Source: a virus (Duplodnaviria > Caudoviricetes). Taken from it: a DNA stretch of 64,000 nucleotides. Location of the stretch: IMG/VR virus record IMGVR_UViG_3300035208_002115, one strand, 5' to 3'. Both the position numbers and the translations under genes were made by a program. The notes under the pieces were generated by a model. That model was given only the letters and a program-made list of their open reading frames with translations. It had not been told where the DNA came from and did no database searches. Positions 2,809-31,622 of this stretch are shown in pieces; position 1 is the stretch's first letter; the number at the start of each line of letters is the position of its first letter.

Positions 2809-3799
2809 AGTTTTTATAATTGGAAATAGCACATTTGGGTATAAAGAATTGTTCGACTTAAATAAATCATTAGACGAATCGGGTAAATATTATTTTGATT
2901 ATCTCATACCATTTATAAAAAAATATAAAAAAGAAAATGATTGCCTGATTCATCTTGGTAATGTGTTCAATAGAAATGAAAATATTAATGTAAAAACTAT
3001 TAATCAGGCCGTTTCAGTATTCGAGAGATTATCAGAATTATTACCAGTTTTCATATTACTATCTAAACATGATACATATGGCACATTAAATGTCCTCACT
3101 GTACTTAAAAATATAAAGAATGTTTATATCGTAGACAAATCAGCTACTTTATATGATAATAAAATACAATTATATGGTTATCATAAAGATATAATTGAAG
3201 AAATTAAAAATAAAAATATTTTTTTAAATCATTTTAATAAGATTTTAGAGCCTGTTGAGAACCTTGAACATTATTCTGAAAGTGAATTTTTATTTGTAAA
3301 TAATGAAATATATGGCCTTAATTTAAATATAGACTTTAAAATAATTTATTCTGGCGTTAAAGATGAAACTAAAGGCAATAATAAATGTATCGAATCCCCA
3401 TACCCATTAAATTTTAATTCCAAAAATAATGGTATTTGGGTGTTAGATGTGGAGTCTGGACAAGAAAAATTCATTCCAAATGGAATTAATTCTAAATTTG
3501 AGATAAAAAATATCACTTCTATTGGTGATTTGAAAATACTAACCGAAGAATATCTTAATAATAATTTTGTAGATTTAAATATAAATTTCGAACTTTCGGA
3601 AAATTTAGAATTTCAAATGAAATTATCACAGTTGAACGTGAAGTCGATTCATTATACTAAACAAGACATCATTGAAGAACAATTTGAAGAAGAAAAAACT
3701 TACGATATATTTGATTTAGATGCTATTATAACTGATAATATTAATTCAGACACAGTGAAAAATGAATTTGATAATGTCAAACGCATTTATAGTAAATAA
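2801..3799 (+). CDS. gp47/SbcD/Mre11-like metallophosphoesterase-fold protein with degenerate metal-binding motifs
   Basis: Motif order IIGNSTFG / IHLGNVF / LSKHD / YSG / SPY matches gp47, but the DxH, GD and GNHD residues are substituted. Confidence 0.65.
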   Translation: MAKVFIIGNSTFGYKELFDLNKSLDESGKYYFDYLIPFIKKYKKENDCLIHLGNVFNRNENINVKTINQAVSVFERLSELLPVFILLSKHDTYGTLNVLTVLKNIKNVYIVDKSATLYDNKIQLYGYHKDIIEEIKNKNIFLNHFNKILEPVENLEHYSESEFLFVNNEIYGLNLNIDFKIIYSGVKDETKGNNKCIESPYPLNFNSKNNGIWVLDVESGQEKFIPNGINSKFEIKNITSIGDLKILTEEYLNNNFVDLNINFELSENLEFQMKLSQLNVKSIHYTKQDIIEEQFEEEKTYDIFDLDAIITDNINSDTVKNEFDNVKRIYSK

Positions 3800-3810
3800 T
3801 GGACGGAATT

Positions 3811-4109
3811 GTTGGGTATATCTTTCAAATTGTGACTTGGTACACTGAGAAGATAGTTGAGAAGCTTGATTATTCCGTTGGGTATACCTTTCAAATTATG
3901 ACTTGGTACACTATTTATTCGCACTTGAATTATCCTGAGTTAGTTGGGTATACCTTTCAAATTATGACTTGGTACACTAAACCAACTCTTTGGCTTTTGG
4001 TCTTTCCTGTTGGGTATACCTTTCAAATTATGACTTGGTACACTAAATCTGGATTCGTTGTTTTTGTTTACCTGTTGGGTATACCTTTCAAATTATGACT
4101 TGGTACACT
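3811..4109 (-). CRISPR. CRISPR array: 5 x 36-nt repeats, 4 spacers (30, 30, 30, 29 nt)
   Basis: Repeat on + strand GTTGGGTATACCTTTCAAATTATGACTTGGTACACT at 3811, 3877, 3943, 4009, 4074. The 3811 copy has 2 mismatches (trailer end), so the leader is on the cas side and transcription is likely on the - strand. Confidence 0.97.
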
Positions 4110-4326
4110 ATACCATAATTTAAATCACTCAATTTAAGGTATTTAGTGAGTGTATTAGTGGAAAAAAAGTATGTAATTTTTAAAATTTTACTTTCAAAAA
4201 TCCAATTTTTGCTTTCCTGACCTCACTATCTGGTTTTAATCCCTGCGCTCACCATACATTTTAGTGAGTGTATATAGCAGTTCATTTACTGGACTTACGT
4301 CCAACCCAATAAACCTCAATATTATT
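4110..4326 (-). ncRNA. putative tracrRNA plus leader between cas12f and the array
   Basis: Non-coding 217 nt. The - strand has a TGGAC-GTAA-GTCCA GNRA hairpin, a CACTCAC..GTGAGCG hairpin, and TTGGGT complementary to the repeat 3' end ACCCAA. Confidence 0.55.
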
Positions 4327-5589
4327 TCAAAGAACTTCTTCTAAAACCTTTTCGGTTTTATTTAAGTAATATTTTCCTTTGCTTGCATCATCTAAATAAT
4401 CAACAGATGTAGCTATATTCATTGCAGCATTATAATCGCTATCAATTACTTTATTAAAATCATCACATTTCGAACTTAAACACTTAAATTCAGCACCATT
4501 TCTTTCACCAATAGAACCACAACAAGAGCATATCTGACTTGTATGATAAGGGTCAATATATTTGATAATAATACCACGTTTAATTGCTTTCTGTTCGATT
4601 AAATTCATCAAAGTCATAACACCCCAATATCTTCCAAGATAAGAATTTTGTTCTTTCATAGAATTCTTATCAAGACGTTCCATGTTTATCTGTTGAACTT
4701 TTAATTTTGCAGCAGATTCAATTACTTCTTTTGATAATTTATCCAGTACATTATCAGTAAATGATGTTTCAGAATCTTTTACTTTATTATAAACCTGCAT
4801 TTTTCTTGTTCTACCATGACCTGATTTAGCTAATACAGAAGATTCCTGTACCCTTTTATTTTTCATAGCAATACCATACTTCTGTTGAACTAATTTCTCA
4901 CTATGAATAGACTTCTGATAACTTGGTATGTCATTTATTCTTAAAGAAATAAATCTTCTCACACCCATATCAATACCCATCACTCTATTATCTATGCCAA
5001 CATAACCTTGGATGTCTTGTTCATAGGATAGAATTAACATCAGTTCTTTTCTATTGGTATATTTAATAAGAAAAGTTGAGTTAAGATTGTATTTTTTATT
5101 TTCTAAATCCAAAAATCTATTTAACATAGTTTTAAGATGTCCTGTTTTTTTGTCGAATATTATTTTAAATTTGATATTTGTTCTACTGTTAATAAGAATA
5201 AAAAAATCACCATTTTCTTTTATTAATTTTGGATTAGAATTTTTCAAAAATTGAAAACGTGTAGCACCATATTTCTTATACAGTCTTGGACTTCTTTTAC
5301 CTGATAATAAACCAGCTTTAACATCACTTTTATAATTGTTTTCTGCTTGATATACCCAATCTCTCAGATAAGTAGTAATAACTTTAGGAAATTCCTGAGT
5401 AGTTAAATTATATACTTGTGATTTGGGTGGTGTAACAGGTGACATTATTACTGGATATTGATGTAACATCCGTGATATATCATAAGCCCGATTCAGAATC
5501 TTATAAGATACATTAAAAATATCAAATATCCAGTTCTTGGATATTACATCCACTGGTATTATTTTTATTTTCATTGATGATGTTACCAT
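4327..5589 (-). CDS. cas12f: Cas12f1-like (type V-F/V-U3) miniature RNA-guided nuclease, 420 aa
   Basis: RuvC-I GIDMG, RuvC-II MERL, zinc finger HTSQICSCCG, RuvC-III DSDYNAAMNIA, and the SGHGR motif of AsCas12f1-type proteins; adjacent to the array; ATG at 5589. Confidence 0.88.
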   Translation of the reverse strand: MVTSSMKIKIIPVDVISKNWIFDIFNVSYKILNRAYDISRMLHQYPVIMSPVTPPKSQVYNLTTQEFPKVITTYLRDWVYQAENNYKSDVKAGLLSGKRSPRLYKKYGATRFQFLKNSNPKLIKENGDFFILINSRTNIKFKIIFDKKTGHLKTMLNRFLDLENKKYNLNSTFLIKYTNRKELMLILSYEQDIQGYVGIDNRVMGIDMGVRRFISLRINDIPSYQKSIHSEKLVQQKYGIAMKNKRVQESSVLAKSGHGRTRKMQVYNKVKDSETSFTDNVLDKLSKEVIESAAKLKVQQINMERLDKNSMKEQNSYLGRYWGVMTLMNLIEQKAIKRGIIIKYIDPYHTSQICSCCGSIGERNGAEFKCLSSKCDDFNKVIDSDYNAAMNIATSVDYLDDASKGKYYLNKTEKVLEEVL

Positions 5590-5780
5590 AATTAATTTTT
5601 TGTAAAGTAAAACATATTTTCTGAATAAAAAAATATTATTATAAAAAATACTAAGATTTAATAACAATATCCGTATACAATGTCTATATCGGAATAGAAG
5701 GAAATACCCCCTTTATAACATTAGTCACCTCATCAAAGAATTTATTATTTTAAAGATGTGTAATATTAGATAATTATGTA

Positions 5781-5788
5781 TATTTTTG
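5781..5788 (+). promoter_or_regulatory. Bacteroidota sigma70-type -7 element TAnnTTTG
   Basis: TATTTTTG upstream of the 5863 gene; same motif at 7967, 33552, 45960, 50814 (+) and 57533-57540 (-). Confidence 0.55.
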
Positions 5789-5862
5789 CAAATGATGAAA
5801 ATGACAGAAGTGTTTTACGAAAAAACTGAGACAAACTAAAATAAAAACCTTTTTGGAAAATA

Positions 5863-7992: not shown

Positions 7993-9576
7993 ATGCTAAA
8001 TTTATTATTTTCAGCTACAATATTAAGAGAGTTTCTTATTGGTTTATCATTCAAACCACTTGAAGAACGTATTAATATGATATTAGATTTAATAGGATAT
8101 TCAAATTTATATTCTTTTGAATTTATGGACATTTGTATTAATACAGGAGTAAATGATGATTTAATTGAACATATTTATTTGAAATCATATAAAGATGAAG
8201 AAATTTTAAAGAAAAATATTAGTTATATAAATACCGAACGGTACATCTTGCGAGAAGTTACTAATTCAACTAATTATCGTTTAGATGATGTTAAAAATGA
8301 TATTAATGATAACTTATGGGATTTGTATGATACCGCAGTGAAATGTGATAAACCGTTTTTAGTTGAATTAATCATATATGATAAACGTTTTAATATCGAT
8401 GATTGGTCATATCATATGCAACTTTTTGACTATTTAAAAGAACTTAAAAACCCAAGTGGTGTAATTAATGTGATGTTTTTAAATGAAAGGATATCTAAAT
8501 ACGCCAAATCACTTTATATTGAAGAACTTTTTAAAGAAAATAAATTCCCATTATTAAAATATATTATTGATGATAAACAATTGTTTAATAAAGAAAACGT
8601 AACCATCAATAAAAAAAACATCACTAAATACGCTATGAGAGCAGTGTTTTATGACAATGATGTTGCTTTATCTTATTTAATTGAAAATAAACAATTGTTT
8701 AAATTTATTAATATTGATAAGTTAGCTTTCTACACTGTTATCAATAATGATAGTTTTAAGTGTTTTAAATATTTGGTTGAAAACAACTACATTGATTTAC
8801 CGAATAAATATGAAGAAATTTCTACTTCGTGCGTGAAGGCGAAATCTTATGATTTATTGACAACACTAATATCATTTGATTGTATATCTGGTAAAAATAT
8901 ATTTAATCATTTAAAACCTATTATAAACAGAGAAAACATAAATGATATTATAGAAGTTTATGTTAATTCGGGTAAAGTTGATATTTATCAGGATGATTAT
9001 CATTTGTTTGAAAGATTAGCAGGTTCTATAAATAAAGAATCATTAAAATTGATTCTACAAAAAACTGTTTTAAAATTTGAGAGTGATGATGTAAGAAAAG
9101 TTATTAGAAAAACCATATTTCGTTCTGACCCAATTGATATGGAGTTAATTAGAGATTATATTACAAATACTGGTTTTGATGATGAAAATTATGTAGCTTC
9201 TGAGGCTATAATAGCTTTTTCCGAAAATTATTTCAATATTTTGTTAAAAAAATATCCAAAATATAAACTTCCAGATGATATTTATTATATGCAAATATTG
9301 ACTGATAGTAGTGGTGTATTAATAGAATATTGTTTAAATAAATCATTATTTAAAATTAAAAAATGGTCACACTATTTGATAAGTAAATTGTTAGATAAAA
9401 AAAGTCCTGATACAGCACTAATGGTTATAAACCATAAGAAAACAGTAATAAGAGATGAAACAATAACAGCTATTTATAAATTTTTTGATGCGAATAGTCG
9501 CATTTATCCCGAAGAATTTTTTAAGAAATTTAAAATGGCGATAAGAATGAAAAAGCTTGCTGATATAATATCTTAG
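7993..9576 (+). CDS. alpha-helical, ankyrin-like repeat protein with C-terminal tag
   Basis: Degenerate units (AVFYDNDVALSYLIEN, NNDSFKCFKYLVEN); ends IRMKKLADIIS. Confidence 0.5.
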   Translation: MLNLLFSATILREFLIGLSFKPLEERINMILDLIGYSNLYSFEFMDICINTGVNDDLIEHIYLKSYKDEEILKKNISYINTERYILREVTNSTNYRLDDVKNDINDNLWDLYDTAVKCDKPFLVELIIYDKRFNIDDWSYHMQLFDYLKELKNPSGVINVMFLNERISKYAKSLYIEELFKENKFPLLKYIIDDKQLFNKENVTINKKNITKYAMRAVFYDNDVALSYLIENKQLFKFINIDKLAFYTVINNDSFKCFKYLVENNYIDLPNKYEEISTSCVKAKSYDLLTTLISFDCISGKNIFNHLKPIINRENINDIIEVYVNSGKVDIYQDDYHLFERLAGSINKESLKLILQKTVLKFESDDVRKVIRKTIFRSDPIDMELIRDYITNTGFDDENYVASEAIIAFSENYFNILLKKYPKYKLPDDIYYMQILTDSSGVLIEYCLNKSLFKIKKWSHYLISKLLDKKSPDTALMVINHKKTVIRDETITAIYKFFDANSRIYPEEFFKKFKMAIRMKKLADIIS

Positions 9577-26092: not shown

Positions 26093-27250
26093 ATGGCACT
26101 ACTAAGAAGGTCAACTCTAAAACAATTCAGGAATTTCAGAAAAGAGGTAAAACGTCAGGGTGGTGATATTGGCGATAAAATAAGCAAAACTGAAAATAGT
26201 TTTCCAAATATGGTGTATAACAGAAACCCATTCGACAGTGATGTTAAAGTTGATACATACGAAGATGATTATTCTATCGGGAATAATACAAAATTAAATT
26301 CAAAAGAAATGAAACATGTAAGAACATTTGAATCTCATGATATATATTCAACTATCATAAAAATGTTGGATAATAAACAAATTTCAGAAACTGAAGCTCA
26401 TCAAATAGTTGACTCTCAGAAAATAACCGATGTTTTTAAAAAAGATATCAAAAAAGCTATAACTAAACATTGTCGAAAAACTAAAATAGAAAGTTTAGAT
26501 GAAAGCCTTAGTGAAACAAGAAAAAAAGCTGAACAAGCAGGTGCTAAAGAATATATTGAAAAAACTGGCGAAATTCTTCAATATAAAAACGGACAGTATT
26601 TAATAGAATTAGATGAATTTGTAAAATTACATGATGGTAAAATTCAATATAAACCGATTGAAAGTTATAAAGGACATCAGATTAAATTAGATAAAAATGG
26701 TTCTTATTTATATAGCATTTTTAAAGGTGCAACCAATCTGGAAGATAGAATAAGTTCTATTAAGAAATGTAAAGAAATAATTGATGGTTTTAAAGGTGTA
26801 AATGAAAAAGCTAATTACAATTTCCCTTATGGTATAGACCAAATACCACAATTTTATTTGAAACAGTGGTTAGAAAAATATTCTTTATGGTGTGAAGCAA
26901 ATAAACAAACCCCAAAATATTCAAATTTTGACGAAGTGGTTGGTGATGAGGATGCTATTTCTACAATATTTTATCATGCTGAATTATACGCCCAAGATAA
27001 TAGTGAAATGTTAGATGGTTCTGAATTTGTAGATACTTCTTATTTAAAAGAATCTTCTGATACATCAGCTAATTATAGCTATGATATACTTAGAATGGGT
27101 AAAGATATTACTGTTGGTGATATTCATGGTAAGATATGGAAAATTGAAGGTGCTGATGTTTACATTGAAACCAAAAATGAGGATGGTAAAATAATTGTTA
27201 AAATTCCTATATCCAAGGTAGCCAAAGCTTATAAAATAAAAAAAGATTAA
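26093..27250 (+). CDS. putative multi-segment head protein
   Basis: Late-type TATATA upstream; internal MKHVRTFES, LDES, VNE and LKES candidate gp21 sites. Confidence 0.5.
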   Translation: MALLRRSTLKQFRNFRKEVKRQGGDIGDKISKTENSFPNMVYNRNPFDSDVKVDTYEDDYSIGNNTKLNSKEMKHVRTFESHDIYSTIIKMLDNKQISETEAHQIVDSQKITDVFKKDIKKAITKHCRKTKIESLDESLSETRKKAEQAGAKEYIEKTGEILQYKNGQYLIELDEFVKLHDGKIQYKPIESYKGHQIKLDKNGSYLYSIFKGATNLEDRISSIKKCKEIIDGFKGVNEKANYNFPYGIDQIPQFYLKQWLEKYSLWCEANKQTPKYSNFDEVVGDEDAISTIFYHAELYAQDNSEMLDGSEFVDTSYLKESSDTSANYSYDILRMGKDITVGDIHGKIWKIEGADVYIETKNEDGKIIVKIPISKVAKAYKIKKD

Positions 27251-30140: not shown

Positions 30141-31622
30141 ATGCTTGTAGATTTCGAATATCGTTCTAATTCTCTAATAATATCATTTATTAACGATAAG
30201 GGTAATATTAAATTAAAATACATCCCTTGGAAAGACCCTAAGAAATTCGTTACCTGTTCCCACCAAGATAAAAATAAACATGAACAGTATATCACTTGGG
30301 ATGGCCGTAGTGTTAAAGAAATAGACACTAATTATCCAAATCGTTATTCTATCTATGAATATTTAGATAGCTTACCAGAAGATGAAAAGAAAACTATATT
30401 TGAATACCAAGAACCGAATATTTTCTTTGTTGATATTGAGAATGAAATTTTAGAAAAACGTCCAGCACCACATTTAGCTGAAGGTGCAATACAAACAATA
30501 TCTATTGTATTTAATAATCAAGTTCTGGTTATGGGTCTTCAGGATTTATCACAAACAGACCAAGACGGTATTAAAACCGATATCGAAAATTATTTTTCTA
30601 AATATAATCTTAAAATAGAATTCAAATATAAAAGATATACTTCTGAAAAACACATGATTTTCGATTTCTTTAAAATGACACAACAGATGTCGGTGATAAC
30701 TGGGTGGAATTTTGTTAATTATGACTGGGTATATTTAGTTAAAAGGGCGAGAAAATTATACATAAAACCCGAAATATCATCTTTTACTGGAAATTTAAGG
30801 TCTTCATATGAAGATGATAATTATGCAGAATTACCAGCTCATAGAATTATTGTAGATTACATGGAATTGTATGAAAAATGGGATACTGCTGTTAAAGTTA
30901 AAGAATCAAGTGCATTAGATTTTGTGGCCGAGAAGTTACTTAAAATGAAAAAAGTTAATTATGAAGGTAACTTAAAAATACTTTATCGTGATGACTTTAA
31001 AAAATTCGTTTTCTATAATGCGGTTGACTCCTTGTTGGTTCAAAAGATTCATGAAAAGATGAAATATATTGATGTGTTATATGGTATTTCAACGTTATCA
31101 AAAATTAAAGCGTTGGATGCCTTTTCAACATTAGCTGTTACCGAAGGTATTTTACGTTCAAAATTACGAGATAAAAAAAATATTATCTTATGTAAATTAA
31201 ATGACCCAGATGGATATATAGACCCAAATATAATTGAAACCACTTCTAAGATGGTGAAAGGTGGATGGGTAAAAAGCCCATTTAGAGGCATGAAAACGTG
31301 GACTTGTTGTTATGACTTCGCTTCACTTTACCCAACAACTATGCGCCAATTTAACATATCGGCTGATTCATATAAAGGCCAAATTGACAAAAGTGGTCAA
31401 TATTCATTATTTAATGGTCTTAAAATACCAATAGAAGATAATGATATTATAACTTTAAATGGTGCTGTATTCAAAAATGAAATTGGTGTTGTTAATGAAG
31501 TTATGGGTGATATTTATACTGAAAGAAAGAAACATAAAAAGCTTATGATGAAAGCTAATGAAGAAATGAATAAATTAAAACATGAATTAGAACAGCTTGA
31601 ACATGAAGTAAGTAATTTATAA
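30141..31622 (+). CDS. family B DNA polymerase, N-terminal half (exonuclease plus motif A) of a split gp43
   Basis: ExoI DIE, ExoII GWNFVNYD, ExoIII YNAVD, motif A DFASLYP; ends in the first fingers helix without motifs B and C. Confidence 0.9.
   Translation: MLVDFEYRSNSLIISFINDKGNIKLKYIPWKDPKKFVTCSHQDKNKHEQYITWDGRSVKEIDTNYPNRYSIYEYLDSLPEDEKKTIFEYQEPNIFFVDIENEILEKRPAPHLAEGAIQTISIVFNNQVLVMGLQDLSQTDQDGIKTDIENYFSKYNLKIEFKYKRYTSEKHMIFDFFKMTQQMSVITGWNFVNYDWVYLVKRARKLYIKPEISSFTGNLRSSYEDDNYAELPAHRIIVDYMELYEKWDTAVKVKESSALDFVAEKLLKMKKVNYEGNLKILYRDDFKKFVFYNAVDSLLVQKIHEKMKYIDVLYGISTLSKIKALDAFSTLAVTEGILRSKLRDKKNIILCKLNDPDGYIDPNIIETTSKMVKGGWVKSPFRGMKTWTCCYDFASLYPTTMRQFNISADSYKGQIDKSGQYSLFNGLKIPIEDNDIITLNGAVFKNEIGVVNEVMGDIYTERKKHKKLMMKANEEMNKLKHELEQLEHEVSNL

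Follow-up and report, generated by a model that had tools for sequence, protein, structure and literature searches.

Does the small protein encoded near one end of a long stretch of phage DNA work together with the repeat array that follows it as a CRISPR immune module, or are the two chance neighbours? The stretch in question, called the window hereafter, is 64,000 nucleotides (nt) long and corresponds to bases 509,370-573,369 of a 675,678-bp IMG/VR virus record (IMGVR_UViG_3300035208_002115; Duplodnaviria, Caudoviricetes) with an estimated completeness of 98%. On its minus strand it carries a cas12f-like gene (5589..4327), a gap of about 216-217 nt and a CRISPR array (transcribed from 4109 to 3811). 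A sequence-only reading had described these three elements, namely an effector, a structured gap and a 4-spacer array on the same strand, as a minimal Cas12f1-like system, and all of them were recovered at the positions it gave. From the evidence presented below, we consider it very likely that the locus works as a type V-F-like (Cas12f) CRISPR interference module, encoded by the phage and lacking an adaptation module.

The effector open reading frame (ORF) starts with ATG, ends at the TGA codon in 4327-4329 and codes for 420 amino acids (aa); an alternative upstream TTG start would give 446 aa. Its GC content (27.9%) is close to that of the genome (27.4%). The D/E/D triad and the zinc finger that had been read in the translation are both present, the former in the RuvC motifs GIDMG (D207), INMER (E304) and DSDYN (D385), the latter as a CxxC...CxxxxC zinc ribbon formed by C354, C357, C370 and C375. 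An alignment of 11 sequences (A1) shows no variation at any of the seven residues; in a larger one of 91 sequences (A3), six do not vary either and D207 is kept in at least 90% of the sequences. The protein matches the Pfam family Cas12f1-like_TNB (PF07282, 5.8e-15). When all PDB chains were searched with phmmer, the top match was CnCas12f1 (8HR5, E 2.7e-34), followed by 9NZO and 9NZR (E 2.1e-28), AsCas12f (E ~1e-19) and Un1Cas12f1 (E ~1e-14); the Cas12f entries spanned E values from 2.7e-34 to 3e-13, while ISDra2 TnpB reached just 4.5e-3. The AlphaFold model of the effector, obtained with 91 relatives as input, had a predicted local distance difference test (pLDDT) score of 93.2 and a predicted template modelling (pTM) score of 0.86. 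Its best Foldseek matches were AsCas12f (template modelling score, TM, 0.74), SpCas12f1, CnCas12f1 and OsCas12f, with TM values of 0.69-0.74, compared to 0.59-0.62 for dCas12f and 0.51-0.57 for TnpB. By sequence and by predicted fold, the effector is a Cas12f protein. The prediction of a two-copy complex gave a score of 0.00, which counts neither for nor against a dimer.

The array comprises five repeats of 36 nt each (4109..4074, 4044..4009, 3978..3943, 3912..3877 and 3846..3811, minus strand) and four spacers of 29, 30, 30 and 30 nt (4073..4045, 4008..3979, 3942..3913 and 3876..3847), with the repeat starts spaced by 66, 66, 66 and 65 nt in plus-strand order from 3811. Four of the five repeat copies are identical and the one at 3811, at the end of the array far from the gap, has two mismatches. 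The spacers have a GC content of 34.5%, compared to 27.4% for the genome. A 99-codon ORF on the plus strand (3799-4098) is the array read through in one frame and not a gene.

The gap between the gene and the array contains a region (4326..4143, minus strand) resembling a trans-activating CRISPR RNA (tracrRNA) scaffold, with a GNRA-capped hairpin (4303..4292), a stem named P2 (5′ strand 4226..4220, 3′ strand 4153..4146) that encloses a 66-nt AU-rich insertion, and a conserved 10-nt motif (4152..4143) that has an extra copy at 4270..4261 and none elsewhere in the 675-kb genome. The motif is preceded on the cas strand by GUGAGG (4226..), and the pair of GUGAGG and 10-nt motif is shared by about 30 related loci, where it invariably occupies the cas strand and adjoins the gene or the arrays. 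In a 32-sequence alignment the P2 helix is 97% paired, with five invariant pairs and three covarying ones (GC, AU, UA, CG, UG); this covariation was reached in 0 of 500 shuffles, and sliding the partner columns abolished the pairing. The P2 loop varies from 8 to 70 nt across loci, the long AU-rich insertion being found in the window and in the related locus L006, and the minimum-energy fold of the window's scaffold region recovers P2. No known RNA family from Rfam was matched in the window, and a literature search for the scaffold motif returned primers only.

Immediately after the motif, an anti-repeat of 33 nt (4142..4110, minus strand) extends up to the first repeat and is able to form pairs with positions 3-30 of the repeat; at the core of this pairing, AUACCUU/AAAUU stands against AAUUUGAAAGGUAU. 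In the related loci, too, the segment that follows the motif is complementary, on the cas strand, to the 3′ half of each locus's own repeat, and it changes when the repeat changes. Such matched changes were found in L006, in L010, whose duplex has a predicted energy of -30.4 kcal/mol (p ~0.005), in the three cassettes of L031 and in the Sphingobacterium locus L103, in which AUACCUUUUC stands opposite GAAAGGUAU. The covarying stem, the motif shared by the related loci and the fit of the anti-repeat to its own repeat argue that the gap, structured as had been supposed, encodes a tracrRNA-like scaffold with a locus-matched anti-repeat. A second anti-repeat candidate, UUGGGU at ~4309..4304 against the repeat end ACCCAA, was not counted because related scaffolds with different repeat ends share the UUGGG stretch. 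The L031 contig from IMG/VR (3710-4500) shows a layout of its own, in which three tandem cassettes come after a single Cas12f-like gene of 543 aa, each cassette having a full scaffold and its own mini-array of 1-3 spacers, and the three matched anti-repeat/repeat pairs all being different; similar layouts occur in L028, L029, L032, L034, L051 and L052.

The complementarity of the anti-repeat also indicates on which strand the CRISPR RNA (crRNA) would be read, namely the minus (cas) strand. In this sense the repeat ends in ...CCCAAC (...GAAAGGUAUACCCAAC) directly ahead of the spacer, as in other type V systems, and the degenerate copy at 3811 becomes the terminal, scaffold-distal one, which fits. 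The 36-nt size first proposed for the repeat stands; the 'GTTG' form in which it had been written is that of the plus strand, antisense to the crRNA. Assigning the strand from repeat similarity was also attempted, and it was ambiguous since the repeats are near-palindromic and the plus strand of the window resembles the cas strand of L006; the position of the anti-repeat decided. Because the anti-repeat runs right up to the first repeat with a turn of 3 nt, a single guide carrying spacer one could form by folding of the primary transcript, and the remaining three spacers would need the scaffold in trans. This layout, with the scaffold abutting the first repeat, recurs in relatives. Upstream of the effector gene, a stretch of 273 nt with 21% GC (5862..5590, minus strand) is the presumed promoter region.

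Is the array a regular companion of such a gene? The effector has few near relatives in a collection of 5.8 billion proteins, in which the nearest homologue is 39% identical; an exhaustive search gave 1,673 relatives at 25-35% identity, and the GenBank phage records held no close relative, identity being at most 32%. An array lies beside the gene in all three of the nearest homologues (39, 29 and 26% identity), that is P0002, with 10 or 7 repeats of 36 nt, P0004 and P0003. A scan of IMG/VR returned 418 viral relatives, and 44 of the 80 loci that were fetched have an array of at least three copies inside their 3-kb flanks. CRISPR association is a family trait of the effector's relatives. In a quick maximum-likelihood tree the effector and L006 form a pair (support 100), the effector being on a long branch and placed among relatives that bear arrays, and the array-less TnpB of the same phage genome is placed elsewhere, far from it. 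The sequence-only reading had named a grouping with transposon TnpB as the outcome that would speak against it; such a grouping was seen neither in this tree, which has no named references and is not a full Cas12f/TnpB phylogeny, nor in the PDB matches. The locus of the nearest homologue was found in different samples with 10 repeats (L006:6415-7044) and with 7 (L007:6415-6846), and the three extra units of L006 are the ones most distant from gene and scaffold, which makes the difference look like a loss of old spacers and not a new acquisition.

The absence of cas1, cas2 and cas4 from the vicinity, as first noted, extends to the entire genome, since no match to Cas1, Cas2 or Cas4 was found in its 675,678 bp. 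The genome has a GC content of 27.4% and 40 tRNA genes. Its DNA polymerase (window 30141-31622) shares 57.5% identity with the one encoded by the 735-kb uncultured phage LR756501 ('Mahaphage'), 43-44% with the polymerases of the 634-642-kb phages from the Al-Shayeb et al. 2020 study (PMC7162821) and 28% with the Chryseobacterium and Prevotella Lak phage enzymes, which puts the genome among the largest known phages. The named cultured relatives in the polymerase search infect Bacteroidota. The Cas12f module is the sole minus-strand unit within a block of plus-strand ORFan genes, and seven neighbouring ORFs (five flanking ones, on either side within ~1.5 kb, plus 1351-1806 and 7993-9576) gave no Pfam hit. 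One of the tRNA genes (genome 37754-37827) was called by ARAGORN as a suppressor tRNA with the anticodon UUA, which reads TAA; reading TAG or TGA as sense lengthened long frames barely more than code 11 did, so this crude test gave no sign of TAG or TGA recoding.

If the phage has no adaptation genes, from where could its spacers come? Two further arrays of the same format, with 36-nt repeats and 29-30-nt spacers, are found in the genome, one at 130,444-130,873, which adjoins what we take to be an IscB gene, and the other at 486,792-487,018, an orphan with no cas gene nearby. Their repeats are identical to the Cas12f repeat at 22 and 19 of 36 positions, respectively, in the same orientation, and none of 2,000 shuffles scored as high. 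A degenerate copy stands at the GTTG-side end in all three arrays of the phage, and among their leaders no significant similarity was found.

When the 5′ part common to the repeats was turned into a search pattern, this retrieved one true array from 185,579 species-representative genomes, in Sphingobacterium gobiense. With 27 of 36 positions identical to the window's, its repeat is the closest match found, and it belongs to the Cas12f lineage, not to Cas9 or Cas13b, which suggests that the repeat format was largely inherited within the Bacteroidota Cas12f lineage. The Sphingobacterium locus (L103:8079-12350; G001:C3:188078-192349) holds a sigma-70-family gene and a gene for a 363-aa C-terminally truncated Cas12f-like protein, followed by ~3 kb of non-coding DNA with three scaffold copies, in which a 15-nt motif is identical, and several decaying arrays; the three scaffold copies lie on the strand opposite to the array as matched by the repeat pattern. 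It appears to be of the rpoE-dcas12f locus type, for which Hoffmann et al. described a Sphingobacterium example with guide RNAs and interspersed arrays (PMC13472631). A separate array in the 282-kb metagenome contig Ga0206116_1000034 (L115:4660-7085) has eight repeats that are 25/36 identical to the window's and lies directly downstream of a 606-aa ORF with no Pfam hit or Cas12f-like similarity.

The array had been ascribed a II-C/VI-B geometry. Over its first 21 nt, the repeat can be aligned with the opening 21 nt of repeats, 46-47 nt long, that adjoin type II Cas1 genes in three of the Bacteroidota genomes sampled (scores 13, 11 and 10; p 0.002, 0.019 and 0.042), and one of these three loci was verified as cas9-cas1-cas2; the closest repeat, however, is the one of the Sphingobacterium array. 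The sampled Bacteroidota arrays of other types showed no likeness to the window repeat. No Cas1 was found in the Sphingobacterium genome with the most similar array, so that there is no direct link of this repeat to an adaptation module. A precedent is offered by Flavobacterium columnare, in which Hoikkala et al. reported that a II-C module supplies spacers in trans to a VI-B array that has no adaptation genes of its own, the two kinds of repeat sharing chiefly the leader-distal GTTGT end (PMC8092290). By analogy, the loading of spacers in trans by host Cas1-Cas2, as had been suggested for the phage, is plausible. A more elaborate scheme, which we regard as speculative and rather unlikely, is that one repeat family is read from opposite strands by Cas12f ('...CAAC-spacer') and by IscB ('spacer-GTTG...'), with all three arrays refilled by a single type II-C-like Cas1-Cas2 of the host. 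If true, the phage would borrow the adaptation machine of its host and arm two weapons at once.

Several results weigh against the view that the locus is a functional Cas12f module. The NCBIfam model CRISPR_Cas12f2 (NF049972) gave the effector 92.2 bits against a cut-off of 450, which leaves it outside that narrow subfamily. The array is short, with only four spacers, and these have no second copy in the phage's own genome; the whole array used as a query found no match in 50,697 GenBank phage records (INPHARED), the four spacers had no exact match in IMG/VR, a weak negative given how strict exact matching is, and in 401 sampled Bacteroidota genomes they gave just short, low-complexity chance matches in unrelated genes. 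The anti-repeat duplex of the window, at -15.9 kcal/mol, is no better than that with shuffled repeats because everything is AU-rich, and the anti-repeat region is also able to fold on itself; the argument for the pairing is accordingly one of position and comparison and not of energy. Finally, a scan with the sigma-70 consensus and for terminators found no more sites than in shuffled sequence.

Part of this evidence would suit an inactive relic, in which gene and array persist and interference has been lost: only four spacers, no protospacer found, no adaptation genes and a degenerate terminal repeat. Decay of this kind would sit poorly with an intact 420-codon frame that keeps all catalytic and zinc residues, with four identical repeats and with an intact scaffold stem and anti-repeat; moreover, short arrays are normal in phages, with a median of six repeats (PMC7162821). 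We give the relic a small chance. The chance is smaller still, and very slight, that the effector is a transposon-type TnpB guided by an omegaRNA and that the array is beside it by coincidence. The effector does pass the cut-off of the NCBIfam guided_TnpB model, and its PHROGs family bears the name 'transposase', but guided_TnpB is a broad superfamily model that includes Cas12f. The genome also has a true TnpB at 26 kb, a 370-codon frame with a second Cas12f1-like_TNB match (26125-26316, 83 bits) and no array, which we regard as an ordinary TnpB; from this protein the tree separates the effector, which is nearer to Cas12f than to TnpB in sequence and in fold, whose relatives carry arrays and the same scaffold, and whose scaffold has an anti-repeat to this very array. 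Among the scanned neighbours, neither tnpA nor any other Pfam domain was found. Likewise very improbable is that the array is mainly a store of guides for another effector, either the IscB of the phage or a host Cas9 or Cas13b, the repeat being of the Bacteroidota GTTG family. This idea draws on the 22/36 identity between the window repeat and that of the IscB array and on the resemblance of its first 21 nt to II-C repeats; it must be set against an adjacent scaffold whose anti-repeat fits the window repeat on the cas12f strand, an order of gene, scaffold and array that recurs in relatives, and a nearest repeat match that is a Cas12f-lineage array.

For the functional Cas12f module that we favour, we infer the following course of events. 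The minus strand would be transcribed through cas12f, the tracrRNA-like scaffold and the array, and the anti-repeat at the 3′ end of the scaffold would base-pair with each repeat over its 3′ half. For the first repeat, which it abuts, the pairing would be in cis and would yield a single guide at once; for the remaining repeats it would be in trans. Trimming of the duplexes would then give guides that read scaffold : ...GAAAGGUAUACCCAAC-spacer. The 420-aa nuclease would bind these guides, probably dimerised as other Cas12f enzymes are, and its predicted RuvC site (D207/E304/D385) would cut double-stranded DNA that matches the spacer and is flanked by a protospacer-adjacent motif. The likely use would be against competing mobile elements or host DNA during the infection of a Bacteroidota host, and new spacers, if still added, would come from host Cas1-Cas2.

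Judged by its sequence, the locus is divergent, at most 39% identical to anything found, and ordinary in architecture. Adaptation-less V-F systems have been on record from huge phages since 2020, so that the locus is a good further example of them, not a system of a new type. It adds a compact (420 aa), apparently intact Cas12f with a predicted guide-RNA scaffold to the set of phage-borne type V-F systems, and its source is one of the largest phage genomes on record. Its repeat and scaffold motif tie a phage nuclease to the Bacteroidota lineage that gave rise to the dCas12f-sigmaE systems, which activate transcription, a tie that points to a nuclease-active relative of these systems and to a Bacteroidota host. 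In addition, the genome combines three arrays from a single repeat family with two different nucleases and lacks adaptation genes, which makes it a concrete test case for loading in trans. As a candidate editor, which the sequence-only reading had also seen in it, the protein is one among many and its nuclease activity is a prediction.

How, then, does the locus compare to known systems? With CnCas12f1 (8HR5) and with AsCas12f, OsCas12f, RhCas12f and Al3Cas12f, all of type V-F1, the effector shares its miniature size, the RuvC triad and the TNB zinc ribbon, and the locus shares an adjacent array and, here by prediction, a helper RNA of the tracrRNA type, pairing with the repeat over its 3′ half. 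Unlike those nucleases it is phage-encoded, it is just ~22-28% identical to them, its N-terminal part is ~80 residues shorter than that of CnCas12f1, and its scaffold abuts the first repeat; unlike canonical V-F1 loci, neither the window locus nor the phage genome as a whole has cas1, cas2 or cas4. IS200/IS605 TnpB (ISDra2; 8EXA, 8H1J) resembles the effector in the RuvC/TNB core and in ancestry, and a scaffold with the guide at its 3′ end recalls the omegaRNA; in the phage, by contrast, the guides would come from a repeat-spacer array, and the RNA scaffold is located downstream of the gene's stop codon, from where it runs on into that array. As to a transposon context, no tnpA or element ends were found at the locus, the ends not having been searched for exhaustively.

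The F. columnare VI-B arrays (PMC8092290) are similar in their 36-nt repeats and 30-nt spacers, in the leader-distal GTTG, in the lack of adaptation genes of their own and in transcription that runs from the leader into the array, predicted in our case; they differ in effector class and in not being carried by a phage, and in that the leaders of the phage's arrays are dissimilar. The Sphingobacterium rpoE-dcas12f (dCas12f-sigmaE) locus has a repeat identical at 27 of 36 positions, an identical 15-nt scaffold motif that includes the first bases of the anti-repeat, and the same order of scaffold and then array on one strand. Its protein, which matches the effector weakly (E 0.001), is C-terminally truncated, nuclease-dead and partnered with a sigma factor, whereas the phage effector keeps the full RuvC site and the zinc ribbon and has no sigma-factor partner. 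That miniature type V systems are borne by phages, as the sequence-only reading stated, is documented in huge phages, where Al-Shayeb et al. (2020; PMC7162821) described type V-F (Cas14) variants with conserved catalytic residues, compact arrays and no Cas1, Cas2 or Cas4; the locus in the window resembles these systems in its huge-phage carrier, its compact array, its adaptation-less make-up and its retained catalytic residues.

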